Positions 3,001 through 30,000 are shown, counted from the stretch's first letter. The stretch: 64,000 nt of DNA from Candidatus Omnitrophota bacterium (GCA_026387175.1 JAPLME010000010.1:62096-126095), one strand, 5' to 3'. Notes: generated by a model from the letters alone, not told the origin. A program made the numbers and translations.

Positions 3001-6000
3001 GCCATCACTGAACAATCGATAGAAGGCAGCGAGCTTAACCTTAACCACACCTACACGGTCGAGACTTCCATTAATACCTATAACCCTCTCGGGCAGACCC
3101 TCAGGATGTCTCATATCACTGTGGATGACAACAAGACTACGACAGAGACCGATACAGCTAATAGAACATATAATGTAAAGGGCCAGCTCGAGACTTCCGC
3201 CACTCGGATAAATGAAACGGGAGGCGTTTTAAACCATACCTATGACACAAAGATGACTATTAACTCTTACAATGATATCGGTCAGATAGAGAATATGACC
3301 CGCACCACGACCGATGACGAAAAGCAAACCGTAGAGGCCGATGATGCCAAAGTTGTAAGGGCCTATGACTCGCATGGCCGTCTTGAACATTCGAAGACCG
3401 CCATCACTGAACAATCGATAGAAGGCAGCGAGCTTAACCTTAACCACACCTACACGGTCGAGACTTCCGTTAATGCCTATAACCCTCTCGGGCAGACCCT
3501 CAGGATGTCTCGTGTTACCGTTGAATATTTAAAGGCTGCGGATGGAAATACTATAGTTGGGAAGACCACGACTGATACTGACGTATCTGATAGAACATAT
3601 AATGTGAAGGGCCAGCTTGAGACTTCCGCCAGCCGGATAAACGAGAAGGGCACAGGCCTGGATCATACTTACTATACAAGCATGAGAGTTGACGATTACG
3701 ATCTGCTTGGTCAAGTCGCGCGCATGACCCGCACCACGACCGACGATGAAAAGACTACCGTAGAGACTGATATAGCACCAAGAGCCTATGACTCGCAGGG
3801 CCGTCTTGAGCATTCGAAGACCGCCATCACTGAACAATCAATAGAAGGCAGCGAGCTTAACCTTAACCACACCTACACGGTCGAGACTTCCGTCAATACC
3901 TATAACCCTCTCGGACAGAACCTCAGGGTGTCTCATGTCACTGTTGATAATGGAAAGACCACGACCGAGACAGATACATCTGACAGGACATACGATATAT
4001 TGGGCCAGCTTAAGACTTCCACAAGCCTGATAGAGGAAAAAGGCACAGGCCTGTACCATATCTATAATATGGGCACGACTATCCTATCATACAATACACT
4101 GGGTCAGACCTTGGAGATGATACGCACCACAATAGAAGAGGACAAGACCACTACTGAGACGGATAAGGCGGAGAGGACTTATAATTCACTCGGGCAACTT
4201 CTGACTTCAGAAACTGATGTGCGCGAATATGGCCCGGGCCTTGACCGTACTTACACAATGAAGACAAGGGAAATATTATATAACGCTATTGGCCAGGCAA
4301 AGCGCATGTCTCGCACCATAGAAGATGGCGGTAAGACCACGACAGAAGAGGATACGGCAGATAGGAGATATGATGACCAGGGGCTTCTCAGCGCCACAAA
4401 CATCCACTACGTTGAGCAGGATATAGGGACTAAGGGCCTTGTGTTCAACCATTCTTATGATACCCAGACAATGATGGAGTGCAATGCGCTTGAGCAGGTT
4501 AAAAAGATGAAGAAAATTACGACAGACAATGGCAAGGTAACCACGGAAGAGGATGTTAGTGAAAGGAAGTATAAACTCGATGGCAAGTTAGAAAGCTCAG
4601 TTACCCAAATCCATGAAGAAGGCACCGTAGACGGGGTCCAGGTTCTGGAAAACGATTATAGGCTGACGACCGATGTTAAGGAGTATAATCTGCTCGGCCA
4701 GGTTAAGCGGATGGTCCGTATTACAAATGATGGATACAGAGTAGTAACTGAGACCGACAATAGTGGCAGGCTCTATGACACAAGTGGCAGGCTCTCAAAG
4801 TCGAATGTGAATAACCATGAAGTCGGCAGCTTGACGAAGTTGGATATGGGCAACAATGAAGTCGGCGGGCTTAACGGAACAGTTGTTCTGGACCATGCAT
4901 ACGACTTGATTACCGAGATCACAAAGTATAACGATCTCGACCAGACCCTGCAGATGACGCGCACGACGGTTGATGGCAAGAAGACCACGGTTGAGCTGGA
5001 CATCGAAAAAGATAGAACTTACGACATTCTAGGCCGGGTACTTGACACGAAAATTGCCATCACCGAACAGTCAGATGATAAACTTAGTCTTAATCATACC
5101 TACACCGTAGAGGCATCTATAACAGTTTACGACATGATGGGTCGGGTGCTTCAGTCGACGCGCACTACTATTGACGGCATTGACGGCGGCAAAAAAACCA
5201 TAGAAATCGATACGAAGGATCGGGCCTATGATATTGATAGCAGGCTCATATATTCAATGATCAAGTGCAGAGATACGAATAAGGCCACAGAAACTGCCGC
5301 CGAAGGCGCCCTCCTCGACCACACATATACGTTAACGACTAATATAAATAAGGAAAACGGCTATAACAACCTTGGCCAGCTTCTCCTTATGGACCGCAAG
5401 ACCGTTGATTACGTGATTGTTAATGGCAAGCTTGTAGAAGGCAAGACTACAACCGAGACTGATATCTCCACCTCGCCCAGAACCTATAACGTGCGCGGCC
5501 AGCTCAAGACCTCTGCTACCAGTATCAATGAATCGGGAGGGGCCTTGCCCGGTAACGTGCTTGATCATACATATACTGTGTCAGTGGAAGCAGCGAAGTA
5601 TGACGATTTCGGCCAAGTTCTTCGGATGACCCGCACGACTATCGACTACGGCCAACTTACTACCGCGATTGATATCAACGCTGGCAAGGTCACGACCGAG
5701 GTTGATACGGCTGACAGAACTTATGATTCAGCGGGCCAGCTCACATATTCAAAGGCAAGGATTACGGAAACTTCCGTAACCGGGATGGCCCTTAATCATT
5801 CATCCTTCCAGGAGAAGACGGTTTATGAGTACAACTCTCTTGGCCAGGCGACGAAATATCGCGACATATCAACCGAGCTTCTCGCTGATGGCGTGACTAC
5901 AGGCGTTGTGACCACTTCCAATACCAGTGATGTGCAATACAATAGGCAGGGTCAGATGGCCAGCATGACCAGCGCTTCATCCGCTTCATCAGGCCCCGAT

Positions 6001-9000
6001 CTCACGACGGTCAGGACCATGTCGGATATAGTATATGACACACTTGGCCTGATGATTTCATATAAGGATGCGGTAACCCAGAAGTCGTATAATATTAACG
6101 GCGATCCGAATTCTGGGATTAAATTCAATACCACGGATACCGTTATAGGTTATCATACGTCAAAAGATAAAGATGACGCAGGGAATCTCACAGGATACCC
6201 TCTCGGAGGCACGGTCATATCAAAATCGGATATTCAGGGTGATGTCACAACCTGGGTATATGACGCGCGTGACCGGCTCGTGAAGATCCAGAATCCGGAC
6301 GGCAGCATAACAGAGTACGTCTACGATGGCGACACCACTCTTATCAGGAAAGAGATCTACACTCTTGCCGATGGCAAAACAAAGACCACTAAAGAATATG
6401 ACGCAGACGGCAGGCTTGTGAAAATAGCTAACCCTGACGGCACCACGATCACATGGCAGTATGACACATTGGATAGGCTGAATATAATAACTGACGCGGA
6501 TGGCATGACTTCTACTTACACCTACTATGGGAATACTTCGATAATAAACTCGATCGAGGATTGTGATAAGAATAGCAGCGTCGTTAAGAAACGGCAGGTC
6601 TACTCCTATTATGACGCTTCCAGAAATCTTGTCGCAGCTGTAAATCTGACCAGCACCTCGGCATATGAAACTTATACTATAACCGAAACTGATCTCGACC
6701 CAGGCTACCTCTCATTCGGCGGGAGCGACTATCTCCAGCTTCCTCTCATACAGTTGAAACAGAATGGCACTATTGCGATGTGGGTGAAACTGAGCAACAC
6801 AGGTGACATGGATATCTATGGCGATGATGCATCAGGAAAAGGCGGCGGCCTGCAGGTGAAGGATGGATTTTTCTGTAGTGTTGTGGGTGCCAATAGATGG
6901 TCGACCGGTGTAGCGGTGGCGGCCGATAAATGGTACTACGTTGCGCAGGTATTTACCAGTACATCGACCACGACTTATATCTACGACGCTGATGGTAATA
7001 AATTATCGGGCGCGACAAAAGCCCTCGCCATTACCCAACAAAATCCGGCTGTCTGTCAGCTCCAGGTAGGAAGATCCTCGACAGACGTTGCTTTAGGCCT
7101 TAACGGTTTCAAGGGACAGATCGATCAGCTTGCGATATATAATACGGCGCTTTCAGAACAAGAGATGGATATGGGTAGGTATTCCGAAGGATCTGCCAGG
7201 AGCATGACCCAGAAGCTTATGGCATTCTATTCGTTCAATGATGGCACCGCGACCGATCTGACCGGCAATAAATATAACGGTTCATTTATCGGAGATCCGT
7301 CTTTTGCCATGGGGGCCAGGCCTGGGGTAAAAACCAGCTTTACTGCCGATCAGTATGATAAGAATGGCACATATATAAAGTCCTATCTTCCTGTTTTTGG
7401 GAGCTGCCCCATAGCTACGGCTGCGCTTTGGCCTAGCGGATGCTGGTCTCAGTCAGGCTTGCAATCGTTTTCTGCAGGTAATGTGAACGATGGAGGCAGC
7501 AGCATCGCTTTTCATACAGACTCGGCTGCTGTTGGTTCATGGCTTACACTAGATGCAGGCTCCGCAAAAGCGTTTACCGGAGTTACGATCTGTTCCGGAC
7601 GATCGATCCAGCCGAATGTTTCCAAATGGGAAATCCAATGGTCCGATAACGCTTCATCGTGGACTACAACAGGAGATAAAATCGATCTTAGCACCAATTA
7701 CGGTGGTTGGGTGGAGGCGCGATGGGCAAGTACCGCAGGCGCCCATAGATATTGGAGATTATATAAGCTGAATGCAGCCTCCGGCGGCGATTATGTCAGA
7801 GAAGTTCAATTCTTTACAGGGACCGATAAATATGCCAATGCCAATCCTGTGTCGAACACCGCCTTTGTTGCGTCCCCTGCGCCTGTACCGCCGATAACTA
7901 CCGGGCCGATTGGACTGACAGTAACTACGCCGCAGGCGAGCACTGCTTCTTACCCGCCGCCGGTAGTTACTTCGGTGCAGGAAGATCCCAACACCCCCGG
8001 TATCCTTCTTGTCACCTGGGGAGATAAGGGCGGCACAACGCAGACGCAGCGAAAATTTGACTTATCGACAAAGGATTATGTGCTGAATCCTGATGGCACT
8101 ATCTTCGAAACATCGATAGCTTTACCTGCCTTGGCTCCGTCAGATACTCAGACCCTTAATCTCGACGGCGGCGCTTCCATAAAGTATTGGGACCAGCCGT
8201 ACGCAGACGGCGCGTTTTACGTAACCGCATACCAGAATTACGATAACAAGGGTAATGCAGTAGGCGAGGTGCAGTATATCGGCCAGGCGCGTTCTTCGTC
8301 CGGGACGCTTCCTGTCATGACAAAACTGTCCGATGGCGGTTTCGCGCTCGTAGGGTGGGATGAAGGCAAAAAGGAGCTATACTATACCGAAATTTCGCCC
8401 AAGATGAGCGTCTCTTCGAATACCTCCCGCACGGATATCAAGTATGATATCCTGGGCCGTCTCATGACATATACCGATGTATCGAGCTCCTCCGCCTCGC
8501 CTGACCTTGAGACGACGACCGATAGGTCGGAGACCAGATACAATGCCCTCGGCCAGGTCACCTCATATATCGAGACGACGGCGAGCAAGGAATATGGCAG
8601 CGCTATATATCTTGAGAATACTAAGAATATGAGCGCTATCACATACAATACCCTCGGTCAAATGACGGAATATGTGGAGAAGAGCCACGATATCAGTACC
8701 GCTCCCGCTTCGGAGAAGATGCTCCTTGACACTGAGACCACCACGACGCGGACCATAAAGACTTATGATAAACAGGGCCGGATGACGGAGTATACGGATG
8801 TGATCGCGCCGGTGAGATCGAATGATGCCGATATTTCCATGATCACTACGACTAAGACCGTAAAGGATATAACTTACGACCCTTCGATCGGAGGCATGAG
8901 CGGATATCATGAAGACTCCAATGATAAAGGCGGCATGGTGCGAATGGATGATGGGAGCGTTACGTACGCGCTTGACATTACAACGACGACAGACCGATCC

Positions 9001-12000
9001 GGCGTCATATATAATTCCCAAAACCAGATCGCCGGATATACGGATAAGATCACGACAGACGGCGATACAAAGATCGAAACTAAGACTATTTCCGGGATGA
9101 AGTATTCGCGCACCGGACGGTCGGCCGGAAGCGTTACAAAGACGCGTGAGACCGGATCCACCGTGTTGGACGGCTATACATACGCGCTTGATTCTACTAC
9201 GACTACCACCCAGACCGATCTTGTTTATAACAAACTGGGGCAGCTTACTAAATATACCAATGTGACGATCGCCGATGCCGCCCCTGAGCGTGCCACTACA
9301 CTATTCATGAAGAATATCAAGTATGACGTGACGGGCCGCATTATAGACTATGACCAGAGTACAGTTGAACGGGCCTCTAATACATATGACCTTAACGGCG
9401 ACGGGGTGCTTGATCAAGGCGATCTTGATGCCCTGACAGAGTATATGGTCAATAAGGCGAAGGCAGATCCGGGGTATGGATATTGCCGCATCGATATCAA
9501 TGGCGATAACAAGATCGATGCAATTGATATCGATATTATCAAGAGTGCGTTGAAACCCTTTAGCGAGGGCGGTTTTGATATGGATGGGAACGGCTATATC
9601 GACGATATGGATAAACAGATATTCAGTCAAAATCTGATGGCGATCATCTCCGAGCACGCTAATATTCAGGGTCCCATTTATGACCAAACCACTCTCGCTC
9701 GTGTTCCCGAAGATACTACGGGGAGGCAGTTCGTCTGTGATGGCTATCTTACCGGAACTAATTATAAGGTCTATGTCGATGGAATAGAGCAGGCCCAAAC
9801 CGGTGTATATACGGTGAGTGAAGCAGATGAAAAAACTACCATCACCTTTAATGCACGAATAAATACCAGCAGTACAGTAGCTCTTAGTCGGCTCATCCAT
9901 GATGCGCAGCCCGGATGGGATAAGCGCTTTGACTTGAATGGCGATAATAAGATCGACCTCTCCGACCTCGAAGAGGCGTCAAAGAGGATACTGGAAATTA
10001 AAACACTCCTTATAGAGAAGTCCAAGGATATAGATTACCTTGCTCTATCTACGAGCGGTAAATATGACCTGAGTTATTCCGGAGGCGGGTACGACCTTAA
10101 TAACGATGGTTATATAAGCGCTGATGATATTAAGACATTCTTCGCGACCGTTACTGTTGATGGCCAACAGATGCCGCTCTACCAGGCATGGCTGCAGGAT
10201 ATGATGGGGAGCGTTGTTCTCAAAAATCCCTCCGGGGGTACGACGGGTAATCAATTCGTCACGAACGGCTCTCTTTCAGGAAAGCTTTGCACTGTCTATG
10301 TCAACGGGGTTGCTCAGGTGCTGAATTCCATCGCATCTAACGGATATACAGTGCTTGAGACAGGGACAGGAAATAATATCGTCAGCACAATTACCTTAAA
10401 AGCAACTATAACTGATCCAAATGCGAAGGTAGAGCTCTCCGTGCGTAAGCTTGAGAATAGCGTTACCCTTGCCAGCGTTTCCGGAGATACCACCGGAAAG
10501 CAGTTTACCCTAGACGGCTCTCTTGCGGGAAGGCTTTACACGGTCTTTGTCGATGGGACAGCTCAGGTTCTGAACAGCGGATATACGGTGAGCGAAATGA
10601 CGGACAGCACTACACATGCTGTTACCACCACGATCACCTTCACTACTGCGATACCCATCGGCAAAACAGTGAAGCTCTCCCAATGGGTGACCACGCCTGA
10701 CAATATCGCGACGGCTAACCTGAAGTCAAATCTCCTACCGCTCTACGTTAACACGGTAAAGGATGGCAAGACGGATGAATTAATGGTTGAAAACCCGTAC
10801 CTTGAAAGCCTTGCTGCCCAGATTAATAAAGTCATAGCGCAGTGTTTTAACATTAAAGCGACAGCACAAGGCACTCCTGGCACGTTTAACTTCTCCAGTT
10901 ACCTGTATTCATTAGCTAATGCTAAATATAACATCACGCTTGATAAGGTAATAGGTACCGGCGATGGATCGACCACGAGATTTGAGACCGGCCTTACGCT
11001 CGCAGATAAGAGCTATCAGATTTTTGTTAATGGTCAACTCAGTAAGTCGACCAGCTACACTGTGGATAGCGCTGGCGCTGTAACTTTCACTGCGGCTCCC
11101 GCCTCCGGCCAGGAGGTCAAGATATCGATTACACAGGTAAGGGAGAATAAAGATATAGGCCCCGGTAATGGGTCGACCAAGAAGTTTAATATCGGCTATC
11201 CGATCGTAGGCAAGACGGTCAATGTCTATGTGGATAGCGTGGTGAACGGCGTGGTAGTGAGCAGTGCGCTAATGGCTAACAACACCTATGACGTTGACCC
11301 GATTTTAGGTACCATTACTTTCAAAACAGGTACTCCGGCACCGCCAGCCAATACGAAAGTCAGGATAAAAGTGGACAATTATGACTGTTCCGTTGATGAC
11401 GCCGCCAAGACCATTACCTTTAACAATAATATTTCTACGTCTGGCATGGATGTCATGATCAAGATCAATAGCTCCGTAGGCACACTTTCCGCCCTGGATA
11501 TCATCCAGACTTTTGACAGCAATGGCAATAAAGTCCTCGATATAGCCGATGTTAATAAGCTATGGAACGACTGGAAGAAAGGAAATTTCGTATTACCTGG
11601 AGACCCTACTGATACTACGGGTGCGGGATTTAGTGGTATTTACGCCCTGGAGCTGGCAAAGTTCCTCGGCGGCGGGCAAGCTAATGGCGCTATCTCCGGG
11701 GTGCTCGATACATCCTACAGCTTTAAACAGGGAACCGCCGACTTTATGGCATTGCTCTCTCTGAGTTCTGGCTTATGGGCAGCGACGGACTATTTAGAAT
11801 TATTGAGCAGGTTCAAAGGCTTCACCAATATTGCCGTGTATGACAGTAATTCCGATAAACAGATCAGCGCAGTAAGGGATACTATTACGGGAAAAACAGC
11901 TGATGAGACCGCGTTTAGTAATCTTATACAGGATCTTCTGTATAAGAGCGGAGTAATAAAGAAAAGTAGCCTCGCCAGCGATGACCCGCTTCTTAATCTT

Positions 12001-15000
12001 AATGTCAATAATGACGACGTGATCAGTAAAGCCGACTGGGATGTTTTTGGCACCCTTATCGGCAAGTACAATAAGACCACGGACGGCCAGATCACTGCGG
12101 AAGACGCAACGGCTACTCTTATTTCTGTGGGAAGCGACGGCAAGAGTTTTGCGCTGCCCTCGAGTTACATGACGACATATTCACTGAAAGGGAAAACCTA
12201 TAAAGTCTTCAGCACTATAGGCGGCACATCGACAGAGATAAAATCAGGTTATACGCTTGACAGCACAGGCAGGATCATAACATTTGCTACAGCGCCTGGC
12301 GCAGGAACAACCATCACGATAGATTTCGATGATAAAGCGACTATCACTACCCTTCTTAGCAATTATGGAGCGGTAATTAAACCGAGTGATATAACCACAT
12401 ACCAGGACGCGATAAAGGTGGCGCTGCAAAATAGAGGATCTTTGGCGAGCGGTCAGACCGGATATCTGCTCGCTTACGATAGAAATAATGACGGCGTGAT
12501 CGATAAGTACGATATCAGCGCGAATGACAAGATCATTGATCAGCTTCTCACGTGGAATGGCGGCGCTGTTACAAACGATAAATTTGTTACCTGGGGACCG
12601 GTTACATCATCATCCGGCGTCTTCTCACAGCTTCATTGTAAAGGGTATGATATCGGCGCTGACGGCGTCATATTTATTGATCCAAAGAATTCATTGGACC
12701 CATCGGATCCATCTAGATATTACAGCATACCTGGCACTGACTATGAATTTACCTATGCCGATGATATCGCCTGGGCAAAGATCACTCAGGCCCATTTCGG
12801 AGACGCGACCCAGGCCGATAGGATCGAGAAATATATATATCTGAGTGAAATACCCGACTCATTTATCAGGAATAATCCCGCGTTTGTCAATCTGACCGAT
12901 ATAAACCAGCTTAATGTTTACCAGTACGGGACAAGCACCACAAAGATCATCACCCAGAAGGACATAGATCTTCTGAAGAAGGACTCATCAAAGAAGGCGT
13001 GGGGTGAAGCGCTTGAGAATTATTTAAACGGAGATACGAAAATAGGGGTTGGCAAGGATGGGAATTGTGTATTTGAATTCGATAAATCTTTGCTTGGATA
13101 CGCTCCTGATGGGAATAATCCTTATGAGATATACGTAAACGATACCAAAGTCACAAATTATACCGCAACCGTAGGCACCAGCACTGTAACCATAACCTTC
13201 ACCGCCGCACCGGCAAGCGATGCGGCAGTGAAGGTGAGGGTGCCCGGTACGGGACGCTTCCATCTGGGGATCATCCTGGAGGACGACGCCCAGTCGATGC
13301 GGTTCCTGGGCAAGGATTACATTACGTTGGGGTATCCGACACCATCGACCGGTTTCGGTCTAAATGAAATTGATAAATCGAGCGCCTGCACGATCGAAAC
13401 GTGGGTCGAATTCACGAATCTTAATACGGCCGGCGATCAGGTCATATTGAGCCAGGCAGATAACGGGAGTGGCCGTGCCATATGGCTAGGGTACAACAAT
13501 AATATAACTACGCCGTCATCCAGCAAGCTGAAGTTCTCTTTCCATGGTGTAACCGCTGAGCTTGATATGAAATTTATCCAGGGCGATTGGCATCATATTG
13601 CCGCGCAATATAACCCGAATGTCAATAGGGCCAGCGGCGAGGCCGGCGTGATCACGTTCTTTATAGATGGTGAGGTCTATGCGCCAAGCCGCTACCAAGT
13701 TGGCTCCCTGGTCCAATATGGAGGTTATCTCAATAAGAATATAATAGTGGGCGCCGATATCGTAGGCGGAGTGGCGACGAACGGATTTAAAGGGTCTATA
13801 GATGAGCTCGCCGTATACTCTTCAGGAGCGCTCACTGCCGCGGACATAAAGAGCCATATGGATAATAAGCGCAAGACGGATCCTTCAACAGGTATTGTCT
13901 CAGTTACGGATACGAGTATGCTGGCATACTATTCTTTCGATGACGGCTCTGTTCGTGACCAGACAGGGCATAGGAATGACGGGTCAATCGCCGTAGGTTC
14001 GACCACGGCCGGCGGGTTTGAGACAGATGTCTTCTGCACGCTGAACCAGAAGAAAGACAGGCTCCTGTTCGACAAAGATGGTGACGGTATTATAGCTATC
14101 TATAAGACATACGCCGGACCGACCGATACGGTCGGCACGTTCCTCGGCGCCCTCGATCTTGTCCCATCGTATGCGAAACTCATCGCTCCGAACTCCGGCG
14201 CTACTTTCATGGTGAGCCAAAAGATGCGGGATATCAATGGCAGATTAATCGACAATGTTCGCTGGGGTTCGGTCGCGCATTTAGACCTTAATGCGGATGG
14301 CTGCGTCTCTATCGATGATACAAAATTCAGAGGCGTTATGGAGAGCTCTGTAGCCAACTATGTCACGTTCACTTATCCCAGCGGCTCAGATATTTTCAGC
14401 GAGCTTTATAAGCATTATGACGCGAATGGCGACGGAATTCTGAGCGCTGTAGATGATGAAGCGGCTTTCTGGTCGAAGGCAAACCTTAACGATGTTAATT
14501 GGGGCGATCCGGAGTACCGCTGGCAAAGCGAGGATGTCGTTTCCCAGGCTGATATAAATACACTGAAAACATATATCTCTACTTATGGCAAGGTGACAAA
14601 GACTGGCGGGTCCTACCGGCTCAAGTATGATATTAATAAGGATGGTATCGTGGATGGTAATGACCTGACCAAGCTCGAGGAGCTTATCTCTACTTACTTT
14701 GATTACCAGACAGATACCGGCAGACAAAATATGAAATATAACGATCTCGGCCAGCTCATCGGTTACGAGGAAACCTCTACCTCCAGCACCGATTCTATCA
14801 CAACGACCACAAAGATGAAAGAGATGAAATATGATGTAAAGGGCAGGATGCTCACTTATATTGATGAGTCACATGAGGCTCTTAGTAAGATTACAGGCAC
14901 ATATACTGATGCCAATGACGTCAAGGTAACATACACAATAGGTAATCTGGCTTCATTGGATGAGTTTAAAAATGTTGTCGATGAAAATGGTATTACAAAT

Positions 15001-18000
15001 AGAGTAGAAGACAAAGACGGCATTCTGGATGAATCTAATGCCGCCGCTATTACAGATACCAATACACAGAGCCTCCTGCGCCGCGCGCTTGCGGAGTACG
15101 GGGTTAATGGCGCGATCGCGCTTATTGACATAACCAAGACCACGAAACGCCTATCCGCCTCATTCAACAATCTGGGCCAGATCGGCGCTTATACCGATGA
15201 AAGCACAGGTACCGATATAACTGGCTCGACCAGAACAGCGATTTTCAGCGGCATCACTTACAACATTAGCGGCCAGATGGAAGGATATAATAATATCTCG
15301 CAGGAAATCGTGAAGGATGGGGACGCGATAGTATACACGACAAATTCCGAGACTGATCGCAGAGATATTAACTATAACCTGAAGGGCCAGGTCAAGGGTT
15401 ATACAGACTACTCATATTCCAAAGATGAGACCTATATACCCAATCTTATAACCGTGAATACTATGTCCGATATCCTCTACGATTCACACGGCATGGTCCT
15501 GAGCTCCAAATCGCTGACTAATGAAGCCTCGACCATGGAATGGATCGACCCGACCGGTAGCAATTGGATTACAACGGGTGCGGATGACCTTAAGATCGAA
15601 AAGTGGTATCTCTCTGCGGACGTTAAAGCCTCATCCGCGTTCACCATTGCTGCTACCGTCACCGATAATAATGGTATCGAATATAAGATCTGTCTGGTGA
15701 GCGGCTACAACGTCGGGGATCCGAAGAAGATATATGATTATAACTCCACCGAAAAAACTATTACATACTACCTTGGCGATGTTGCGAATGGAGAATGGCA
15801 TAACATTAACGTAAAAGAGAGCGATTCACTTAGTTCCGGCCTTAAGTGGCTTATGAAGCAAACGGTCAATGTCGATTTCGGCCATCTGAAGAATATCAAG
15901 ATAAAAGGGTCCGATGTGACGATAAGGAACCTCAGCCTTGCCGAGAATCAAGAGCTTGCCAATATAGAGACGGTTTCGCTCGCTACTTCAGAGTGGATAG
16001 CGCCCGATAACACCACGAAGGCCAATTTAAAGGATACGGTACCTGCCGACAAACCGGCGCTTATTGGCTCAGGATCCGGTACACTTTCGAAGACCACATC
16101 TATCGAAAAGTCCGATGTAAAATATGATCCATTAAACGGTAATACCCTGTCGTATTCCGAAGAGTCGCGCTCCAGCGCAAGTCCCGATCTCAAGACTGTA
16201 AAGACCCTCGCGAACATGGCCTACAACGGCCTCGGCCAGGCGCTCGGATATGATGAGTCGAATCAGGATATAGAGAATGCCCTTGTAATCACGAGCCCCG
16301 CAGGTTACAGCGCCTCGATCAGGAGTATCGAGCCCGGCACCGATTGGGGCTATGGGCCGCGCATAGAGGGTAAGTCATTCCTGAGCTTTGATGTAAAAGC
16401 GACTAACGATTTTAGTTTTTCAGCCTGGGTACATGTCAATAACGGTGTCAATGATTTCACAAGCTGGTATTTTGTCACCTTTAAATCAGGCGATGGCGCC
16501 AATGAGTCCGGGGGCGGCGCCGACCGGAATGTCCTTATCTACCTCGGCTCGAACGCGACCGATGGCGGATGGCAGAGTTACACTTTCGACTTGAAGGATA
16601 TCTGCTCCAGATATATATCGTTATCACCGAAATATTTGAGCGTGGGAGAATTCCATATTACAGCTTCGAATGTTTCGATGAAGAATCTTAAGGTCTCGCA
16701 ATACGAAGATGGGAAGGACCCTACGACAGTTTCACTCGATCCGAAGCTCTGGACAAAGCCGGGCGCAATCTCGTTAGATAACGGCCCCGCGGCGGATACT
16801 AACATCTACCAGGTTCAAAAAGTGCTGACCGCGGTAAGCGAACTTTGTTTCCAGATAAAGCCGGGAGCCGGCGATTATGGCGTGAAAGCCCGTCTTGGAG
16901 TCAAAGATAGCGAAGGCGTAGAGAGTATTTATCTTATAGACTTCGTATCGGATCTCAATAGCGTAAAAGGAACTCTCACTCTTGTGCCCAATGCGGAGAG
17001 CGATAGTGATGTTAAATATACCCTTAGATATAATATGGGGGATCTTACCAATGAGCCGCAGGAAAGCGGTTACTACACTATCAGCGTTGATTTGCAGAAT
17101 ATTCTCAATAACGCCGCCGCGCTGACAGACAGTAGCGTCCAGCTCTTGTCCTTAAATTCCGTTGTATCGCATGGGGACGTTGATTTTATTAATAAGACAT
17201 ACACTTCCGATGAGCTTACAAAGCCTTCCGGCGATGAGGGCGATGCCTCCATGTTTACCAATCCTGCCGCTATTGACCCCGATGCTCAGGGCAGTTGGAT
17301 CAATAGGTACCTGTATTGGTCCGGCAACAGTACTTGGCCGAGCGGCTATGGCGATGAGATGTGGCATAAGCAGTGGCTAAAGGTTTCGTATATACCTAAA
17401 GCCTCTGCGGCAATGACGCTCTATGTAAAAGTTGTCGATAAAGCCGGTAATTCCTATAACCTTACCTATAATAAGCTCGAGACGGCTTCCGGAACGCCGG
17501 AGGTAACGAAGATGTGGAATCTCGCCGAAGACCTGGCGAAGCAATATAAGAACGCCGCGGCGTTCGACCACGTCAAGTATATCTCCCTCGAATGCGCCGA
17601 CGGGACCTTCACCAGCATAAAACTATCGGACAGTTTCAAGGAATGGGATGATCCCACGCGTATTATCGACATTCCTACTCAGAAGGAAGCATGGGTTCTG
17701 AATCCGTTCAGGGACGATACCCAGGATTACACCATAACCACAGACACAACCACAAACAGAACATACTATAAGGTCCGCTCGGCCGCCTTGAGCGATACAG
17801 AACTTTTTATGAACCTCAGAGACGCTGCTGATACATCGGATATCTATAATGATATCCTTAAGAGCAAGAACAAGCTGACATTCTATCTCAGAAATCTTGA
17901 AAGCGGCAAAGATTATATATTTGCGGATGGCGAACCGTTCATTTGCTCGCTCAATGTGCAGGATAAGGACGGCGTTAACCATTCGATCGTAGTCAATTCG

Positions 18001-21000
18001 TCCGAGCTTAAGCCAGGCTCAAAGCCGTGGCTTGCAGTCGATACCTCCGTTGCCGGTGCGACAAAGGTCACTATAGATCTTAAAGCCGCTTCCATTGCCG
18101 ATGGTATGGATCCTGAAAAATTCGATGGGTTGAGGCAGATCTCTCTAAGAGGCGGATACTATGATATTAGCAACATCGGGCTTTGGGAGAATGACGAGAC
18201 AGCGAATACCTCAGTTTTGCCCAGTCTATTAAACCGCCAGGACTGGTCAGTCTCCTTCATTATGCCCCGTGGCACAAATATAAGTTCGAATGCCGAGCTT
18301 GCCTTTAATTCCGGCTCCCGCTTAAAAGGTGAGGCCATTCGCCTTGTCGATGGCATTAGTACTGACTCGGGCGACCTCGGGCTGACTGATAGAAATCATA
18401 TAACCTTCAAACTTAAATCGATCGGCGCGACCACGCTCGGGTCGGACGGAAGGCCATATGCCCTTGATGAGAACTTTGCTATGAATGTCAAGGTTATGGG
18501 CACCGATGGCAAGACCTATGACATTAAGATCTCTCTCTTGGATAGAGAGAAGAAGCTGGATTGGACGATCATCGATCGTGATCTGGCAAAGCTCTTTAAT
18601 GATAACCTGCCAACCGATCCGTTAACCGGGCTGAAGGATGATGTGATGATAGACCATATCATGAACTTCTCGGTCGAAGGAGTTCAGTTCAGTATAAAGG
18701 ACATACGGTTTACCTCGAACGCGCAGACGGTAGTCGCCTTTGACGCGACGCGCAATCCCCAAACAATGTTTAAGGATGATGTGGGTGTATTAAGGAAGGA
18801 CAATGTAAAGGTAAAGGTTGAGTCTGTAGACCAGGACGGACACATTATCAAAGACCAGAACGGGAGAGCTATTCTGAAGCCGGAGACCTACACGGTCACA
18901 TTCCGAACCGGCGGTGTGCGCGGCACCGTTCTTGCGCCCGACTCGAATAAGGATATAGTCTGTTACCTTGGCACGGCTAATTCGTTATCCTCCGACCCTC
19001 AACACTATGAATTCAGCCTTGATTGGATATTGCGGAATGCTCTTGATAATAGCAAGCATCTCCCCGGTGAGCACATAGCCTTTGAAATAGTTGATCCTGA
19101 TATTAAAAATCCAGTTTCTCTTATTGGCGGCATTGACATTATAACGCTGGCACCATCATCCAACTCTGTATTCTCGCTCGTGAAGAAACCCGAGATCGAG
19201 GAAGCCTACCGTAAATACACTATTAACGACTGGGCGCAGTATGGGATACTTGCCTCTCCCTCGGGTTCGGGGCTTTTCAGCAGCGATTTTATGAACGCAC
19301 TCCAGGAGTCGAAGGTTATACAGCCTACCAAGGATTCGACCACGACCCGATCCGATATGGTTTACAATGATTTCGGCCAGGTAGTCTCTTACACGGATAC
19401 CAGCTTAAGCGCCGACTCCCCCGATCTTGAGAGCGTCTTGACCGTTACGGATGTAACCTATGACGAACATAACCAGATGATAAACCTCGTCCAAAATACG
19501 GAGGATTATTCAAAGAACATCAGGCAGTCGGTTATCGCCAAGGACAACGGGACGAACGTCCTTCACCTGAAGGCATCGTCCCAGTATGACTATACTACGA
19601 CCTTCTACGCTGAAGATACGAACGATATCCTTACCAATGGTAAGCATATCAAGTTCGAAGTTAATCAGGATGAGTATGGAGAGCTTTCGTCATTCGAATT
19701 AGACCTAGCTTTTGGCTCGGTTCCCATCCCTTCTGAGATTTCTCTGGTGAATTCTAAACTGCATGTGGTGTATAAAATAGATAAGACAGGCACCGCCGTG
19801 GCATCGTTATCAGGTGACCACAATACCCTCTATCTGCCATTTACGATGTCACAGAAGGCTGGGACCAATACATATGTCTTCGATAGAAGTATCTACACTG
19901 ATATAAAGGACGCTTTCGACAAATGTATAAAGGGCGCAGACGGCAAATCTTACAACGACTATCGAACCGAACTTACGGCGCTTGCCGCCATTCCGAACCG
20001 GAACCCGACCCAGCAAGCTAGATATGATCTTCTGACTGCGAAAATTGGCTCCCTGGCCGGGCTTGATGATAGTAACTATAGCATTACTGCGGGATCGGTT
20101 TTCTGTAAGTTTACGGCCAATACCAAGGTTATTTCCTCCTACTCAAGTGTCGACAACGTTGTAAGTTTTAATGTGAACCAGAATAGCCTGGGGACGCTTT
20201 CGTCATTTGACCAAATCGTTAATGTTTATCTTGTACAGTCCTCTAGCCATTATGAATATGACGCATATGAAGGCTATGTATATGATTCTTCTCTCGAACT
20301 ATATATGTCTGATGGAACGCAATGGTATCGATGGTATCCCCCCGCGCCAGAAGAGGGACAACCCTACACTTATTATTCTCGTGACTACGGTTTACATACG
20401 AGGAGAGAAGTATCTGACACAACTAATGTGCCGGCGCCTGGCCTGACAACCACTGCTCCTCACGTTATTTATGAGGCGGGCCGAACCGTAAACTCAATAT
20501 CATCCGATGGTAAGACTATCTATCTACCGCTTGTATTGACGTTGAATCCAGCCACCAGTATGTATGTATTTAACAAGAATGTTATAACTGATGTACAAAA
20601 CGCGCTCAATAATCCCCTCGCGGGATATACGTGTAGCATAGCAAGCGACCCCACATTCAATTTCACATCCGCTGAAGTTCCCATAACCTATTCCGATGGC
20701 AGAAACGTCAGATTCGATTTTGATCAGGATGCCTATGGAACTCTCTCATCATTCGAGATAAATATGGCCTTTGCGCTTACGCAGGGCCAGAGGATGGATG
20801 GCCTGGGCTTGACAAGCCCTAATCTCCGCGTCGTCTATAGGAAGGGCGATACTATGGCATCACTATCCTCAGATGGTACGACCCTCTATCTGCCGCTCAG
20901 ACTGACACAAGTAGGGACGACCAATACATATACCTTCGATACCAGTGTCCACGAGGATGTAAAGGCCGCGATCAACGGGTTATGCGGCTTATATATCACA

Positions 21001-24000
21001 GAACTCGCGGCCCTTAAGGCCCTCACCCAAAGAAGCACGACTCAACAGGCACGATATGAATTGTTGACCGCAAAAGTGGCCGCTTTTACCGATCTGGGCG
21101 TTAATGGCCTCAATAAATACAGCTATAGCCTGGCAGAATCCGCCTTTGGCATTATACCGATGCCCGCTACTGTTACCGCCGCCTACTCCGGTGATAGCTT
21201 AGACTTGACCGGCAAGGAGTACATCAGGTTCGAGGTTGACCAGAGTAACCCCAAAGACCTTTCATCTTTCGAAATAGACATGAACTTTAAGCTCAGAGAG
21301 GGCCAGACGCTGGCCGGGATCGGCCTGACAAATCCGAAACTCCGCGTGATCTATGGGGCTGACGTTAAGGAAGCATCAAAGTTCCTTGACGGCGGTACCC
21401 TCTATCTGCCGCTTGATGATAACAAATTGAAACTGAAAGAAGGAACGACAAATACATATATTTTTGATACCAATGTCCATGAGGATGTGAAGGCCGCGAT
21501 CCAAAAAATATTCGAGGGATATGCGACAGAGGCCGGCAATCTTGCCAATGCTCCCAGTATGACGCTGAGGGATGAAGATAGATATAAGTGGTTGATGGCA
21601 CAAGTGATTGCCTATACCGGGCTCGACGACTATAGCTATTCACTGGCAAGTCCGGCGTTTGGCCTTAAGCCCACTCCTGTCAAGGCCTCTACCGCATCAT
21701 ATAACCTCACGCCGATCACCGGTAAGAGCGTTCACTTCGAGGTTTATAAACAGAATGGCCCGAAAGATCTTTCATCTTTTGAAGTACAGCTGAATTTCAC
21801 GAAGAAAGATAGTGAGGCGATAACGACTCTTGCAATGAATCCTCTTGGTTTGACGACTACGACACCCAAAGTCGTCTACAGGGCGGATGTCACAACGGCA
21901 TCGAAGTCCCTCGACGGCGGCACCATCTATCTGCCGCTCACTTTGACATTGAAAACGGGGACGAACGATACGTATGTGTTCGATAGGGGCAATATTGATA
22001 CTGACATAATGGCCGCGCTTGGCGTTTCGGCCACGACGCTGGGCGGATATACCTATAGCCTGACAAACCCCCAGCTTGGCTCTATAGGCTCTCCGGTTAA
22101 GGACGCTGTTGCCAAAGAGGTCTTTATCAAGGACTTCTCATTCAGGCCTACGGTTGCGTGCGATGTCGACGAATCTATTCTTACATTCGTTACAAGTGAG
22201 TGGACAGTCGATGATGTGCGTAAGAAGCTCGATATAGAAGCGAGCTCTCCTGTATACGTAGCGTCGAAGGTTCTTACCGGTGCGGACAGCGCCAGGACCG
22301 ATGGAAGGTCGTTCATGTCCATCGACATCGTTACACGCGCCAATGCAAAGTTCGGCGTTAAAGTGCAGATCGCCGCTAATGACGGCGCTGGCAACAATTA
22401 CAATGGAGATTACCTCGTCCTATACGATATATGGAACGGCCGCGCCGAAATCTGGCAATATAAGGATTATAACGATAAGAACGCGGTAAGCGGCGCTCCA
22501 ATACCCGGCCGCAAACTCGTCCTTATCGACGGCGTCAATGAGATCGGCTCGGGAGGATGCGAGGCGAACGAATGGTACCATTTCGAGAGTGACATCGACA
22601 AGCTCCTGATGAAAGCTCTTGCCGTTACCAGCATCAGTAGTTTTGAAGTGAAAGGCCTCTATACAAGCGGCCAGGTCAGCCTCGCCAACCTCGGGTTCAG
22701 TAAAGATGAGGCGACAAAGACGGACCGTCAGGAGATCGGGCTTGGAGACAAGAAATCGGGAGACCCGGATTATGACCCAGCATATATATGGCATGCCGCC
22801 GCAAAGTCCGACTATATCAATTCCGACGGAACTTTAAATACCGCCTCGGTTGTGAAAGACTTCGATATTATGGATATAACCGGTTTTGCCAATTCCGGCG
22901 CTTCCGACCCGCTGTCCGAATACTATCTCTATGCCGATAAAGATAGTATCGACTCAACATCTAACAGTATCATCGATCCATTATCTGGTAGTATGAGAAG
23001 GTATCTGTCATTCGATGCGGCCGCGACATCCGATTTCAAGATCTGCTTTGAAGGGCTCAACAAAGCTGGAAACGCAGTGAAAATATATTTCGTTAATTCC
23101 AATTCCGGCACTGACAAAAAAATCGCGACACCGTATACCGATTCCAGCGGCGCCACCGTATACGAATATAATTTAAAGTCGGAGCTCTATAGTAATAATC
23201 TTATCGAAAACTACTATACTAACGGCGCCTGGAACCGTTTCTGTTTCGATCTTGTGGGGATAATCGGAACCAGCTCCTTTACCATAAATAAAGTGAACCT
23301 CTACGGCGGCGCCTTGAAGGTTGCCAATGTGAAGCGCGGGAATGATATCGTTGCCGGCGGTAATGATATGTTTGGCCATCCGCTCCTTGACAATAGATCG
23401 GCCTCGACCGTATCGCTCTTCTCAACCATGAATGAGATCGCCTGGAAGAAATCGGATAAAGCGAGCAAGGCAACCTCTACCATGACCTACACCGGCGTAA
23501 ATCGGTCCGACGATTTTATCGCATCGAATGGCACAGTCGAAGATACAGAGCCGTATAATGTAAAGACCACGACTATGCGCGGCGGCTCGGTATATCCGGA
23601 CGGTTCGCCTGCGACCAATATAAGCTATGATGAATTCGGCCAGATCTCCGGCTATAGCGACTGGATCACCGATTCGACAACTCCTAACATAGTCACGATA
23701 AAGAAGACGGACCATATTATGTATGACGAAGCCGGAAGGATGCTTGCTTATATCGAGACGAAATCCCAGAAGCCCATTTGCAAACTCAGTGACCCCGACA
23801 AGGCGGACATAGAGAAAGCCCTCATCAATGGCGGTGTCATCGGGGTGGATGATCCGGGGTATCAGGAGGGATACGATATTAACGGTGATAAGCAGATAGA
23901 TATGAGTGATTATATCAAACTCAAGAATTCTCTCACCCAGTCGCTGCTTGATTCTTCTCCTCGTCAGGCGATCGTTGTGGCAAATAACTATGACGAATAC

Positions 24001-27000
24001 AGCAAGTATAATATTGTCGATGATTCCCTCCTTACGGATATGGACCAGAAATATCTTAAATATTACGAAGAGTTCCTTAATGCCCCGAAACAGAATTTCC
24101 TTAATATAAACAGCCTTTCGGAGGCCCAGGTGAACGCCCTGATCAATGATGTCGGAGTGGCTGAAACTATAAATCTTGCGAGAGACGGTACCGTGACGCA
24201 TGCCGATGCCGTCACGCCGGGTTCGACATATCTTATCAGCGGGTGGACAGGGGGAAATGTCACAGTTCCGGAAAGTATGATCGTTCAGTGGCGGGAAGAG
24301 TCGTGGTCGAATCCTCGATTGGGATGGCAACCCGAAGACCTGGATTATAATAAAGACGGTGTTATCAATGGCTCGGATGGTACCAGTTTTGCGGAGATTG
24401 GCACTATGGTTGCTGCCTTCCAAACCCTCTTCGGGTCCGGGGCAAAGCTAACCCCGGAGCTGAGTGCGGCATATCACGCCCTTGATACTAATGGGGATAA
24501 CAAGATCGATATTCTGGACAAAAAGCCTGCTTCGAATCCTGCTAATACCGCGTTCAATGCTTATATTGATGCCCTTTTGAAAGCGGACGGGGCGGTTTCG
24601 CAGGGAGATGCCGGGAGAAAATTCCTCTCCTATGTTAATCTAGTCACGGCGGCCAATATAACTAAGTGTCAAGACCGCATCGCCCAAGTAAACAGAGATT
24701 TAGAGGCAGCCGGGTCGATCAACAGGCTTACGCCCCTTACACCCAACGATATCCTTAGCGGGATAATGGCGAGCGGCCAGAGTTATCTCGACAATCTTGC
24801 GCTCGTCACGAAGGATAGCATAGATACATCTATGCGTACAATCTCCGCGGCCAAAACCATCGTTACGACACTTAATATGAGCGCGGATGATGTCCTTAAA
24901 AATATATTAACGGACGGCGGGAAGTTCCTCGGGAACCTCGCGCTTGCCACGCCGGCTAATATAAATAAACTCCAAGACCGCATCGGCACTGCAAACGGTG
25001 TATTAGATGCGACCAATCAAATCAAGGCTAATCTAGTTATGTCTGTGAAAGATATCTTTAATAAGATATTGACGGATGGCAAGCCGTTCCTCGATAACAT
25101 AGACCTTGTCATAGCAACTAATATAACTGCGTTTCAAGGCCTCATTACCACGATTAATAATGCATTGCCAACAGGGACAGATAAACTTACGACCCCCCGG
25201 AGCGCGAACCAGGTCTTAAACGATATACTAACCGGCGGTAAGCAGTTCATTGACAATATCAATATCACGGATGAGAGTAAGAAACTCTTTACGGCAGCCC
25301 GAATAACCGCAGCTCAAGTTTGCATTGCCAAAGCAAATGAGGGATTGGCGGCGACTGACCAGCAGCTTACGCCTCTTAAGCCGGATGATGTCCTTAACGG
25401 TATAATATCGTACGGTAAGAAGTTCATCGATAATATAGGTCTCGTCACAGCCGGCAATATAACCACGCCTCAAAACTGTATCAGGGCGGCTAATTTGACA
25501 TTAACCGCCAAGATTCAGGTCCTGACAGCGGATCAGATTTATAGCAGGATAATATCGGGCGGCCAATGGTTCCTGAGCAACATTGCGCTCGTAACGGCGG
25601 ACAATATAACAGCGGCGCAAAACACCATTACCAAAGCTAATTTAGGCCTTACACCCCCGACCGTAAGCCAGCTCTTTGACGGGATAATAGCGAGCGGTGA
25701 GCAGGGCTATGAATACGATGTCGATGGTAACGGTCAGGTCAACCTTCAGGACAAGCACACTGTCGAATATGACGATATTGTGAAGAGGATTAAAAATGGT
25801 AATGCTTCCTCAGGTGATTATGCAAGACAAGCTGTCCTTGATAGCATATTCAATGACTATATTATCGCCAAAGGCTCTGTTTCCCGCGGGGAAAAGTCTG
25901 ATGTAAGGCTGAGTGACGCTACGGTAAATTCTGCCCTGGCTGGAGACAGTAAATTCTTATATTCCCGCTCTACGGCGCCGGTATTTAAAGTCGAAGATAC
26001 CGCAAAAGATAAGAAGATCTACTTTAAGATAATCAACGGCCCCGTTATAAAAGAGACGGATCCCGCAATCACATTTAATATCTCAAAAGACGGCGCGGTA
26101 AATGACTTTATGATAGATGAAACGGATGGATGGACATACGTGAGAGAGATCTCGTCCGTAGCTGACCGGGTGCTCATCGATTATAGTAAGGGCGAGAGAG
26201 TACTTATCGACGATGTAGAACAAAAACCCGAAACATATAGAATTGATACCGATGAAACTACAGGAGCCAAGACTATTGTATTCCTGAATTCACCGGTACC
26301 CGAGGGCAAGTTGGTAACGATAAAAGAGATAAAGACCGAAGCGTCTCCATATGTAAACAGTGATACATCCGGCGTAGATCCGGTGACCAAATGCGTTTTT
26401 GACGGGCAGCTCATACCTCTATCCGGTCTTGCTAATGAATATGAGATAAAGGTGGACGGCGTGGTTCGCCCGCATTTTTCCACGACAGACCCGAAATACG
26501 AGAACTACACGGTCACATGGGACGCAAAGACCGGGTATACGACCGTTGTTTTAAAGATGATGGACAGGTCGATCACTCCGACGTATACCACTGACGGTAA
26601 TAATCCTTGGTGGTATGGGTTCCTGGGCAAGCAACTTACGCTCGGCAGAACTATAGGCAGCGCGACTATAGACTGTGCTTATGATCCTCTCAACACCTAC
26701 GTGATATATCAGGACGGCAAAGAGCTAAAGGCCTCGGACTATACCGCCTCATCCGCGCAAGGCGGGAAGACGTTGATAGTATTTACCAATTCTTTACCAG
26801 GCACCGCGATCTTAAAGGCAAAATCCCTGGAAGGTAATCCTGTCATTGTAGCAACATATGCCCGCGTTACTACACCAATTAGTCGTACTTCAACCGATAC
26901 CAATAGGACAAGATATGCTATGAATGGATTCCTCCGCTCCTACGATCCTCTCGTACCCACAGGCGAACCTGCGGGTGAGCTGAAATTGTCGAGCCTGTGG

Positions 27001-30000
27001 CGCCAAGGCATCTTTTACCTTGAGAATGGGTATAATGCAAATCTCGATAAGAATTCTGACGGGTTCATAGAGGTCGCGCCATATCTGACAACGACCGATA
27101 CGACGTCGAAGCTGAGCGGTCTCCTCGACCAATGCAATATCACCCTGGCCCAAGGGTCGAATCCTACGAAATTCTACGCTGACCGGAACAGTGACGGCTA
27201 TATAGATCAGGCAGATGTTAACGATCTGATCCAATCTAGTGATGAGAACCTGAAAGCATGGGGTAATGCTATTCTAGGTATCCTCAATAAGAATAGCGAC
27301 GTTAACAGTATAATTGACGACAATGAGAGACTATGGATTGCGGATCCGGCTCCCAGTGAGGCCGCTCAAAAGGACGCCGCTATGATCCGCAGCTATCTCC
27401 TTACGCCGATGCATATACCCGGCACGATCATTGTGGATAAGGGGTTTGATTATATCGACCAGATGGATATTAATATACTTAAAGACACTTCGACAGAAGA
27501 TGTTGACTGTGTGACGAAAAAAGAATGGGCTAAGACTATCAAAAATTACCTTGCCAATAATAATAAGCGCGATCAGGGTATTCTCTATTGGCAGAGTGAT
27601 TATTATTCCAGCCATATTCTTCCGGATATGGATGGTAACGGTGTTGTAAATAATGCCGATATAACGGTCGTTGTGAAAGATGCCCAAGGCCACGAGACAC
27701 GGGAAAATAAGTCCGACATTTTGAAGGGATGGCTGAACGGCGATGTGCCCCAGGGAGATTACGAGCATATCATAATGCCCGGCGATGCAGGATGGGACTC
27801 TAGGTACGATCTCAATAATGACGGCATATTAAGCGGAGCAGACCTGGAAGTACTCGCAAGAAATCTAACCCTGCCCCAGGATATTGTCACTGAAGCAAAT
27901 AAGACATTGAGTGACGACAACAAGCTTTCGGATCTGACCACGTCCCAGGTTCTTAACGGCATAAAAGCGAATGGCCAGGGCTATTTCACCAATGTCAGGC
28001 TCGTCACGGCGGCTAATATCACCACGGTTCAAGCCCACCTCAATGAGGTGAACAATTTATTGGCGGATGGTAGCAAGTTTACGCGCGCTACTGAAAACCA
28101 GGTCATGACCGCAAATCAGGTCCTCGATCAGATAATATCAGGCGGCCAGAAATTCCTCGACAATATCCTGCTTGTCACAAAGGATAGTATAGAGAGTTCT
28201 CAAGCGCATCTCAATGATGTGAACAGTCAATTGAAGGGGGTTAAGTTTACGCTCACCGAGGGCCAGGTCATGACCGCGGATCAGGTCCTTAACGGTACAA
28301 TAATGAACGGCCAGACGTTCCTGAGCAATATTATGCTTGTCACAAAGGATCGTATAGTCGATTATCAGACTTCGACCAAGGCGATAAACGATGGGTTGGA
28401 TTCAGGCAATCAACTTACGTCCTTTACCCCCGACGAGATCCTTAGCGGGATAGTAGCAAACGGGCTGGTGTATTTCACCAATATCAATCTCGTCACAGTA
28501 GATAATATAACCACGTCTCAGGCCCATCTCAATGAGGTGAACAATTCATTGCCGAACGGTAACAAGTTTACACGCGCTACTGAAGACCAGGTCATGACCG
28601 CGGACCAGGTTCGTGAAGGTATAATAATGGACGGCCAGAAGTTCCTCGATAACATCAAAGATCTCGTCACGAAGGAGAATATAACCAAGTCTCAAAACTA
28701 CATCGTGGAAGCAAACAAGACATTATCGGATGGTAACCAGCTTACGCCACTGACCGCGGACCAGGTCCTTAACGGTATAATAGGGGGCGGCCAGAAGTTC
28801 CTGGACAACATCAGTTCCACACAGGCTGTTTTGGATGAATTTGTTCCTCACGGATTTGTCGCTCGTTTTAACGAATACATGATAAATAACGCGGCGCTTG
28901 TCGATGATCCGAAAGTGAGCACTGATGCTTATAGCGTATTGCTTGCCACTCATCCCGGAATTACAGATATCAATCTCGACCATAAAATAGACCATTTTGA
29001 TCTCGATACCTATTCTCTTAATTCGGAGACGCGTACGGAACGTGATCATGTGACCTATGAGACTTCGGGCAGGCTCTTTGGATACCGCGATACTGTTACA
29101 TCCCCTTCAACCCCATACCAGGTGACTGAGAGCATCGTATCGGACATCTATTATAACGAGAAGGGCCAGATGGAAGGATATAATCAACTGGATAATAGTT
29201 CGACCTTCCTCGAGTTGAACGGCAAAGACAGCGATTATGCCATTACGACCGAGAATGGGACTATGCCGGATCTCAATATAAGGAATGGGTACCTGAATTT
29301 TGATTTCAACGCCGCCACAGGAAAGTCATTCGAAGTGGGGGTGAGTATAGAAGTTGATAAATATATAGGGACATCCTTGACTCAGGAAGAGTACACTATC
29401 CATTTCGCTCTTGGTGAAAATACCGGCGAGATTAGCTACGATTCCAATACGCCATTCGAGGCTACCTATAATCTCGGCGCCGAATCAGATCTCTGCGACC
29501 GTAAATGGCATTCGGCCCTTCCCTTAAATCTGAGCCTTTATAGGATAATTGACCAGATAGCCAGTAAAAATGGCAGTCCTGCCGGCGCCCGCTATAAGCT
29601 TAACCATGTAAAAGCCATAACGCTTAAAGGCGAAGATGTCCAATTTAAAAATATATCGCTTTCGGCGGATAGCCTTCTCACCGATATAAAACCGGTTTCA
29701 GTCAAAAACTCGCAATGGAATAATGTTATTAAGACTGATCTCGGTACCTTCAATGCGCCCTACGAGAGCGAGCTTACCATAAAGGATATCAAGCGTAGAA
29801 ACTTCAAATATAATGAGCTGATGCAGTCCACCGGCTACCAGGATACGGTCTGGAGTTCCGATAACCCGGCTATCGAGACCGTAAGGACCATTTCCGCCAA
29901 CGTCTATAATGGGCTCGGCCAGATCGTAAGCTCTGACGAGAAGACCGAGACGCGCCAGAACTCGCTTACGGTGAGCTCTCCCGGCACATCGCTTTACGGT

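Follow-up and report, generated by a model that had tools for sequence, protein, structure and literature searches.

Does a giant protein that carries many calcium-binding loops of dockerin type, with no cohesin evident around it, use them for docking or for its own architecture? This question is raised by a 64,000-nt stretch of DNA (the window), in which a sequence-only reading had listed 17 such sites, describing them as more than 15 loops, often in pairs, with the signature of type I dockerins, which may rigidify the protein in the presence of calcium or bind cohesin-like partners encoded elsewhere in the genome. All 17 sites lie on, or at most 10 nt from, a 12-residue loop in the frame of one giant ORF (nt 13-56244, + strand; 18,743 aa), and a complete count gave 21 in-frame loops of the form D-x-N/D-x-D/N-G-x-I/V/L-x-x-x-D. 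Four of these had been missed, two of them canonical (nt 11515, aa 3835; nt 24343, aa 8111) and two degenerate (nt 12001 and nt 12070). The frame contains no stop from nt 1 up to its first ATG; the ORF is therefore open at the 5' edge of the window and may extend upstream of it, and its 18,743 residues are thus a lower bound for the giant protein. A NuoL-like gene 5.4 kb further downstream shares 68-80% identity with Omnitrophota MAGs and no more than 46% with other phyla, which assigns the window to an uncultivated bacterium of Candidatus Omnitrophota.

The 21 loops are distributed over aa 3126-9277 in about 11 islands (M1-M11, all on the + strand), at a density of 21 per 6,150 residues. With 7.5% Asp, 6% Asn and 8% Gly, the protein is acidic and rich in Asn and Gly, and over so long an ORF such motifs could arise by chance. 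In 300 shuffles, however, the regular expression D.[DN].[DN]G.[IVL] was expected 0.45 times (maximum 3) and observed 14 times; a broader one, also requiring D/N at position 12, gave 17 matches versus 0.23, and a strict one 9 versus 0.007. The loop motif is therefore about 40-fold or more over chance. An HMM built from the loops recovered 19 strong and about six weak sites, all within aa 3123-9286, with aa 1-3100 and aa 9300-18743 devoid of any; the confinement of all loops to 33% of the length has a chance probability of about 6e-10. Together with loop conservation in an orthologue and the HMM and predicted-fold support for a real module, both described below, this leaves the compositional explanation with practically no probability. 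Indeed, the shuffles, the orthologue conservation and the fold comparison rule it out.

The ligand pattern is well preserved. Position 1 is D in 19 of 21 loops and N in two, position 3 is N in 16, D in four and T in one, position 5 is D in 17 and N in four, and position 6 is G in 15. An I, L or V occupies position 8 in every loop, and the residue preceding D1 is aromatic or hydrophobic in 19. Position 12 is D in 19 loops and Glu in none, so the bidentate Glu by which EF-hands are recognised does not occur in any of the 21. The complete calcium-ligand spacing (D1, N/D3, D/N5, a hydrophobic residue at 8 and Asp at 12) is kept on alignment in 19 loops, as the earlier reading had supposed; the exceptions, which lack the position-12 acid, are aa 4687 (nt 14068, DKDGDGIIAIYK) and aa 9012 (nt 27043, DKNSDGFIEVAP). 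Behind the loops, positions 13, 16 and 20 show a hydrophobic periodicity of helix type. On the other hand, positions 10-11 and the residues of the following helix are heterogeneous across modules. The loops are indeed often paired, since 16-17 of the 21 have another loop within 61 residues. The spacing typical of dockerins, in which loop starts are about 33-35 residues from each other, is seen in a single pair (aa 3126/3161, at 35); the other pairs are separated by 23, 45, 47, 54 or 61 residues, mostly 45-61, and four loops are singletons.

The Pfam Dockerin_1 profile (PF00404, gathering score 22.9 bits) is clearly passed at aa 3125-3180 (40.7 bits when scored as a short segment, with the full profile covered) and aa 4841-4889 (34.3 bits), and marginally at aa 3306-3373 (23.0 bits). 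Over the last of these pairs, at aa 3304-3379, EF-hand_5 (33.4 bits), EF-hand_1 (33.1), EF-hand_6 (32.0) and EF-hand_7 (30.3) are at or above their cutoffs. EF-hand_1 just attains its cutoff of 25.4 bits at aa 4795-4811, and EF-hand scores are below it at all other sites. The remaining islands, composed of half-sites or singletons, reach 15-21 bits with Dockerin_1, and seven islands have only sub-threshold Dockerin_1 or EF-hand scores. In PDB sequence alignments the loops match both dockerins and an EF-hand pair. An AF2 model of one loop module, M1, is all-helical with three loop-helix motifs and superposes on dockerin structures at 1.6-1.9 Å, and this Pfam-passing module is thus predicted to be a compact helical dockerin. 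Usable model confidence was obtained for this module only; a 461-residue single-sequence model had a pLDDT of 37.8.

These data uphold the type I dockerin signature in its ligand spacing, its Asp12 and the two clear and one marginal Dockerin_1 matches. They do not extend it to the rest: with seven islands below threshold, four singletons, pairs mostly 45-61 rather than about 35 residues apart and one pair better described as EF-hand, the majority of the more than 15 loops cannot be shown to be type I dockerin modules. The loops themselves are real and conserved, and comprise two dockerin modules by Pfam, a marginal third and one EF-hand-like pair. We also considered whether the loops could belong to another calcium fold with a D-x-D/N-x-D-G motif, such as FG-GAP/VCBS β-propeller blades, thrombospondin type 3 (TSP3) or RTX. 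A faint FG-GAP_3 match on M1 (E 0.89) and the Asp/Asn/Gly-rich composition of the protein would fit. This assignment is nonetheless very improbable, given the Asp at position 12 in 19 of 21 loops, the helix-type periodicity after the loop and the all-helical model. Moreover, Dockerin_1 and EF-hand are the sole families that reach significance on the loop islands, whereas TSP3, RTX and FG-GAP have no Pfam match at E <= 0.1 and the giant protein contains neither a TSP3 match in Pfam nor one to the regular expression D.D.D...D.

The islands differ considerably in their organization. M1 (nt 9373..9651), directly after a tract of YD repeats, is the bona fide dockerin, with loops aa 3126 and 3161 and a third loop-helix at aa 3189. 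M2 (nt 9919..10167) carries loops aa 3307 and 3361, 54 residues apart, and resembles an EF-hand pair with a marginal dockerin score. M3 (nt 11488..11592) has a single loop, aa 3835, which a helix appears to precede, and an EF-hand_1 match of E 0.15 only; both M2 and M3 are conserved in the orthologue. The loops of M4 (nt 11989..12120), aa 3997 and 4020, are degenerate and 23 residues apart, whereas the orthologue has canonical loops there (DINGDAMISKAD and DKNGDNKIDAVD). M5 (nt 12466..12552; loop aa 4156) is identified by regular expression, HMM and orthologue, and is followed at aa 4213 by a conserved non-canonical D-I-G-A-D-G motif. M6 (nt 14059..14703) contains loops aa 4687 (without D12), 4758, 4803 and 4873; its portion aa 4841-4889 is the dockerin module with a degenerate first loop, and the pair aa 4758/4803 aligns in the PDB sequence search to the EF-hand pair of a sarcoplasmic Ca-binding protein (7wbo). 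Further downstream, M7 (nt 23863..23946), again directly after a YD tract, has the single loop aa 7955 and a half-profile Dockerin_1 match of 19.6 bits, below cutoff. M8 (nt 24331..24528; loops aa 8111 and 8158, 47 apart) scores 21.2 bits with Dockerin_1 and 17.7 with EF-hand_7, both below cutoff, and M9 (nt 25705..25788; single loop aa 8569) matches EF-hand_1 at E 0.05. M10 (nt 27034..27252; loops aa 9012, without D12, and 9057, 45 apart) and M11 (nt 27613..27876; loops aa 9205 and 9266, 61 apart) are likewise sub-cutoff, the former with EF-hand_1 at 20.3 and Dockerin_1 at 15.5 bits, the latter with Dockerin_1 at 17.1 bits in two stretches; a degenerate loop remnant lies near aa 9147 in M11.

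These modules are interspersed among YD/RHS-like β-helix tracts, lectin-like domains and small β domains. The main YD/RHS-like repeat array (nt 1732..6522, + strand; aa 574-2170) was found by self-BLAST, YD regular expression (66 matches versus 7.9 in shuffles), Pfam (RHS_repeat, 66 bits) and PDB searches, in which Rhs effectors match the region (8qja, E 3e-10). Shorter YD tracts follow at about aa 2750-3120, 4890-5170, 6250-6500, 7800-7950 and 9500-11250, with the loop islands in between. Downstream of the main array, Pfam identifies a Laminin_G_3 domain (aa 2235-2384) and an F5/8 type C discoidin domain (F5_F8_type_C, aa 2484-2594; 35.1 bits, cutoff 28.2), both lectin-like, at nt 6715..7794 (+ strand). 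A second Laminin_G_3 domain (nt 13369..13851, + strand; aa 4453-4613; 51.6 bits) is located just upstream of M6 and is conserved in the orthologue. Six copies of a β domain of about 70 aa (nt 9685..12312, + strand) are interleaved with M1-M4; they follow the pattern G-x-G-x-x-x-F ... Y-x-V-x-V-x-G ... Y-T-V ... I-T-F and match DUF2460 weakly and the virion structural protein phrog_11431 at E 5e-7. In a Kyte-Doolittle scan, a crude method, the first strongly hydrophobic, transmembrane-like cluster lies at nt 34798..35757 (+ strand; aa 11596-11915) and later ones at about aa 12825, 15010-15306, 17111 and 18229. On this crude hydropathy, every loop is N-terminal to the first cluster; the loop-bearing, transmembrane-free part, whose N-terminus is outside the window, is presumably exported.

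The relatives detected in database searches are limited to two short fragments of orthologues and to generic proteins with dockerin repeats. One orthologue fragment (P0001; 56-65% identity) spans five of the 11 islands and retains nine of 11 loops, with an identity of 71% in loops versus 64% elsewhere in this single fragment. It lacks three stretches, aa 3221-3296, 3399-3565 and 3613-3822, which carry five of the six β-domain copies; M1 and M2 are kept, while the β domains between and after them are missing. The loops are thus retained although domains between them have been gained or lost, so that the helical modules fold independently of the β domains. This bears on the possibility of intramolecular docking, in which the helices clasp adjacent β-sandwich or β-barrel domains. 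A ladder-like dockerin/CBM35-like repeat of this kind has been predicted for another Omnitrophota giant protein (West-Roberts et al. 2023, 10.1101/2023.11.21.568195), and the alternation of M1-M4 with β domains recalls it. Such an arrangement is unlikely here, since the modules do without these domains in the orthologue, the domains have about 70 aa versus about 200 aa for the barrels, and the 461-residue prediction did not provide a confident multi-domain model.

The modules could also be true docking devices for cohesin or cohesin-like β-sandwich partners elsewhere in the genome or on a host or prey cell, either recruiting accessory proteins onto a giant scaffold or tethering the scaffold to a target. 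The two modules that plainly clear the Dockerin_1 cutoff, one of them with a predicted dockerin fold, point in this direction. Furthermore, at an unrelated metagenome locus, a dockerin-repeat protein (P0010) adjoins a gene that encodes both Cohesin and Dockerin domains, indicating that such repeats can occur in real cohesin-dockerin systems. In the window, however, Pfam and PDB sequence searches agree with the earlier remark that no cohesin is evident, as none was detected in the giant protein or the five downstream genes. Four loops are singletons, unable to make a dockerin fold alone. In cellulosomal dockerins, loop positions 10-11 and residues of the following helix determine cohesin specificity; since these vary here from module to module, all modules are unlikely to share one cohesin partner. 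No cellulosomal cohesin is reported in three Omnitrophota papers (10.1101/2023.11.21.568195, PMC10066038 and 10.64898/2026.06.07.730766), one of which terms the domains non-cellulosomal. We consider docking as the general function to be a minority possibility, with perhaps a modest chance of being correct.

Our preferred explanation, which is probable but far from certain, is that the loops bind calcium within non-cellulosomal helical modules, which serve to stiffen a surface stalk with an adhesive function, while some of the modules may dock. Each module would be a small dockerin/EF-hand-type unit in which a 12-residue loop is followed by a helix. In the low-calcium cytoplasm the modules would remain loosely folded; after export, each loop would bind one Ca2+, so that the helix or helices belonging to it become fixed in a rigid, compact module. 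The approximately 11 islands would then act mainly as calcium-set joints or spacers stiffening a very long stalk that could serve for contact with host or prey cells, and the two or three complete dockerin modules could additionally be sites of protein-protein contact. In known cases, bona fide dockerins serve for docking, and the evidence at hand does not by itself allow binding to be placed behind a structural role.

Comparison with well-known systems shows partial similarities. M1 resembles the type I dockerins of clostridial cellulosomes (Clostridium thermocellum Xyn10B, 2ccl_B; C. cellulolyticum Cel5A, 2vn5/2vn6) in its two loops 35 residues apart, each with a helix, its D1/N3/D5/D12 ligands, its full-profile score and its predicted fold. 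It differs by its third, fused loop-helix; in addition, the modules lie within a giant protein instead of being appended to the C-terminus of an enzyme, the other loops are non-canonically spaced or solitary, and a cohesin is neither found in the window nor reported for the phylum. Calmodulin-type EF-hand pairs (7wbo) share the 12-residue loop, the aromatic or hydrophobic residue before D1, the profiles passed by aa 3307/3361 and the alignment of aa 4758/4803, whereas Asp replaces the usual Glu at position 12, loop starts are 45-61 rather than about 36-40 residues apart and the predicted context is extracellular. RTX-type giant adhesins have calcium-dependent Ig-like repeats, and their extended parts are proposed to fold and stiffen only outside the cell, where calcium is available. 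By analogy, the protein described here would be a very long surface protein stiffening only outside the cell, but through helical loop-helix modules instead of β-roll or inter-Ig sites and without sequence relationship. As in Rhs/YD-repeat proteins (the T6SS Rhs effectors 8qja and Tse15), YD/RHS repeats cover much of aa 1-2200, with shorter tracts beside the islands. Unlike in those proteins, the repeats are broken up by calcium modules and lectin domains within a giant protein predicted to be membrane-anchored, in which neither an Rhs core nor a toxin-domain signature was detected.

The closest counterparts are found in the same phylum. Dockerin-bearing ('Dockerin-type') giant proteins of Omnitrophota have been described, and a role in adhesion proposed for them, in three papers. 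Besides the account by West-Roberts 2023 (bioRxiv 10.1101/2023.11.21.568195), nine PF00404 domains of non-cellulosomal type were reported in one giant ORF (Seymour 2023, Nat Microbiol, PMC10066038), and PF00404 occurs in 21 long Omnitrophota proteins with up to 15 copies per protein (2026 preprint, 10.64898/2026.06.07.730766). Judged by these descriptions and not by sequence alignment, the likeness comprises a single ORF of tens of kb with several PF00404/EF-hand loops, discoidin and Laminin_G_3 domains, RHS-like β-helix tracts, few annotated domains, poor sequence conservation and, going by the crude hydropathy scan used here, what looks like an extended N-terminal part free of transmembrane segments, followed by hydrophobic clusters nearer the C-terminus. 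On the other hand, the loops are sparse, in 11 islands, and not in dense tandem arrays, with 2-3 modules at the Pfam cutoff, and the TSP3 repeats, SecA-like domain and C39 peptidase of those giants are undetected here (no SecA family match at E <= 0.01 and no C39 peptidase in Pfam over the giant protein). The membership of all loops in one giant protein of this described type had escaped the sequence-only reading. Since dockerin-bearing giant proteins of Omnitrophota are already known, the giant protein of this locus represents a further example of them and not a novel type of system.

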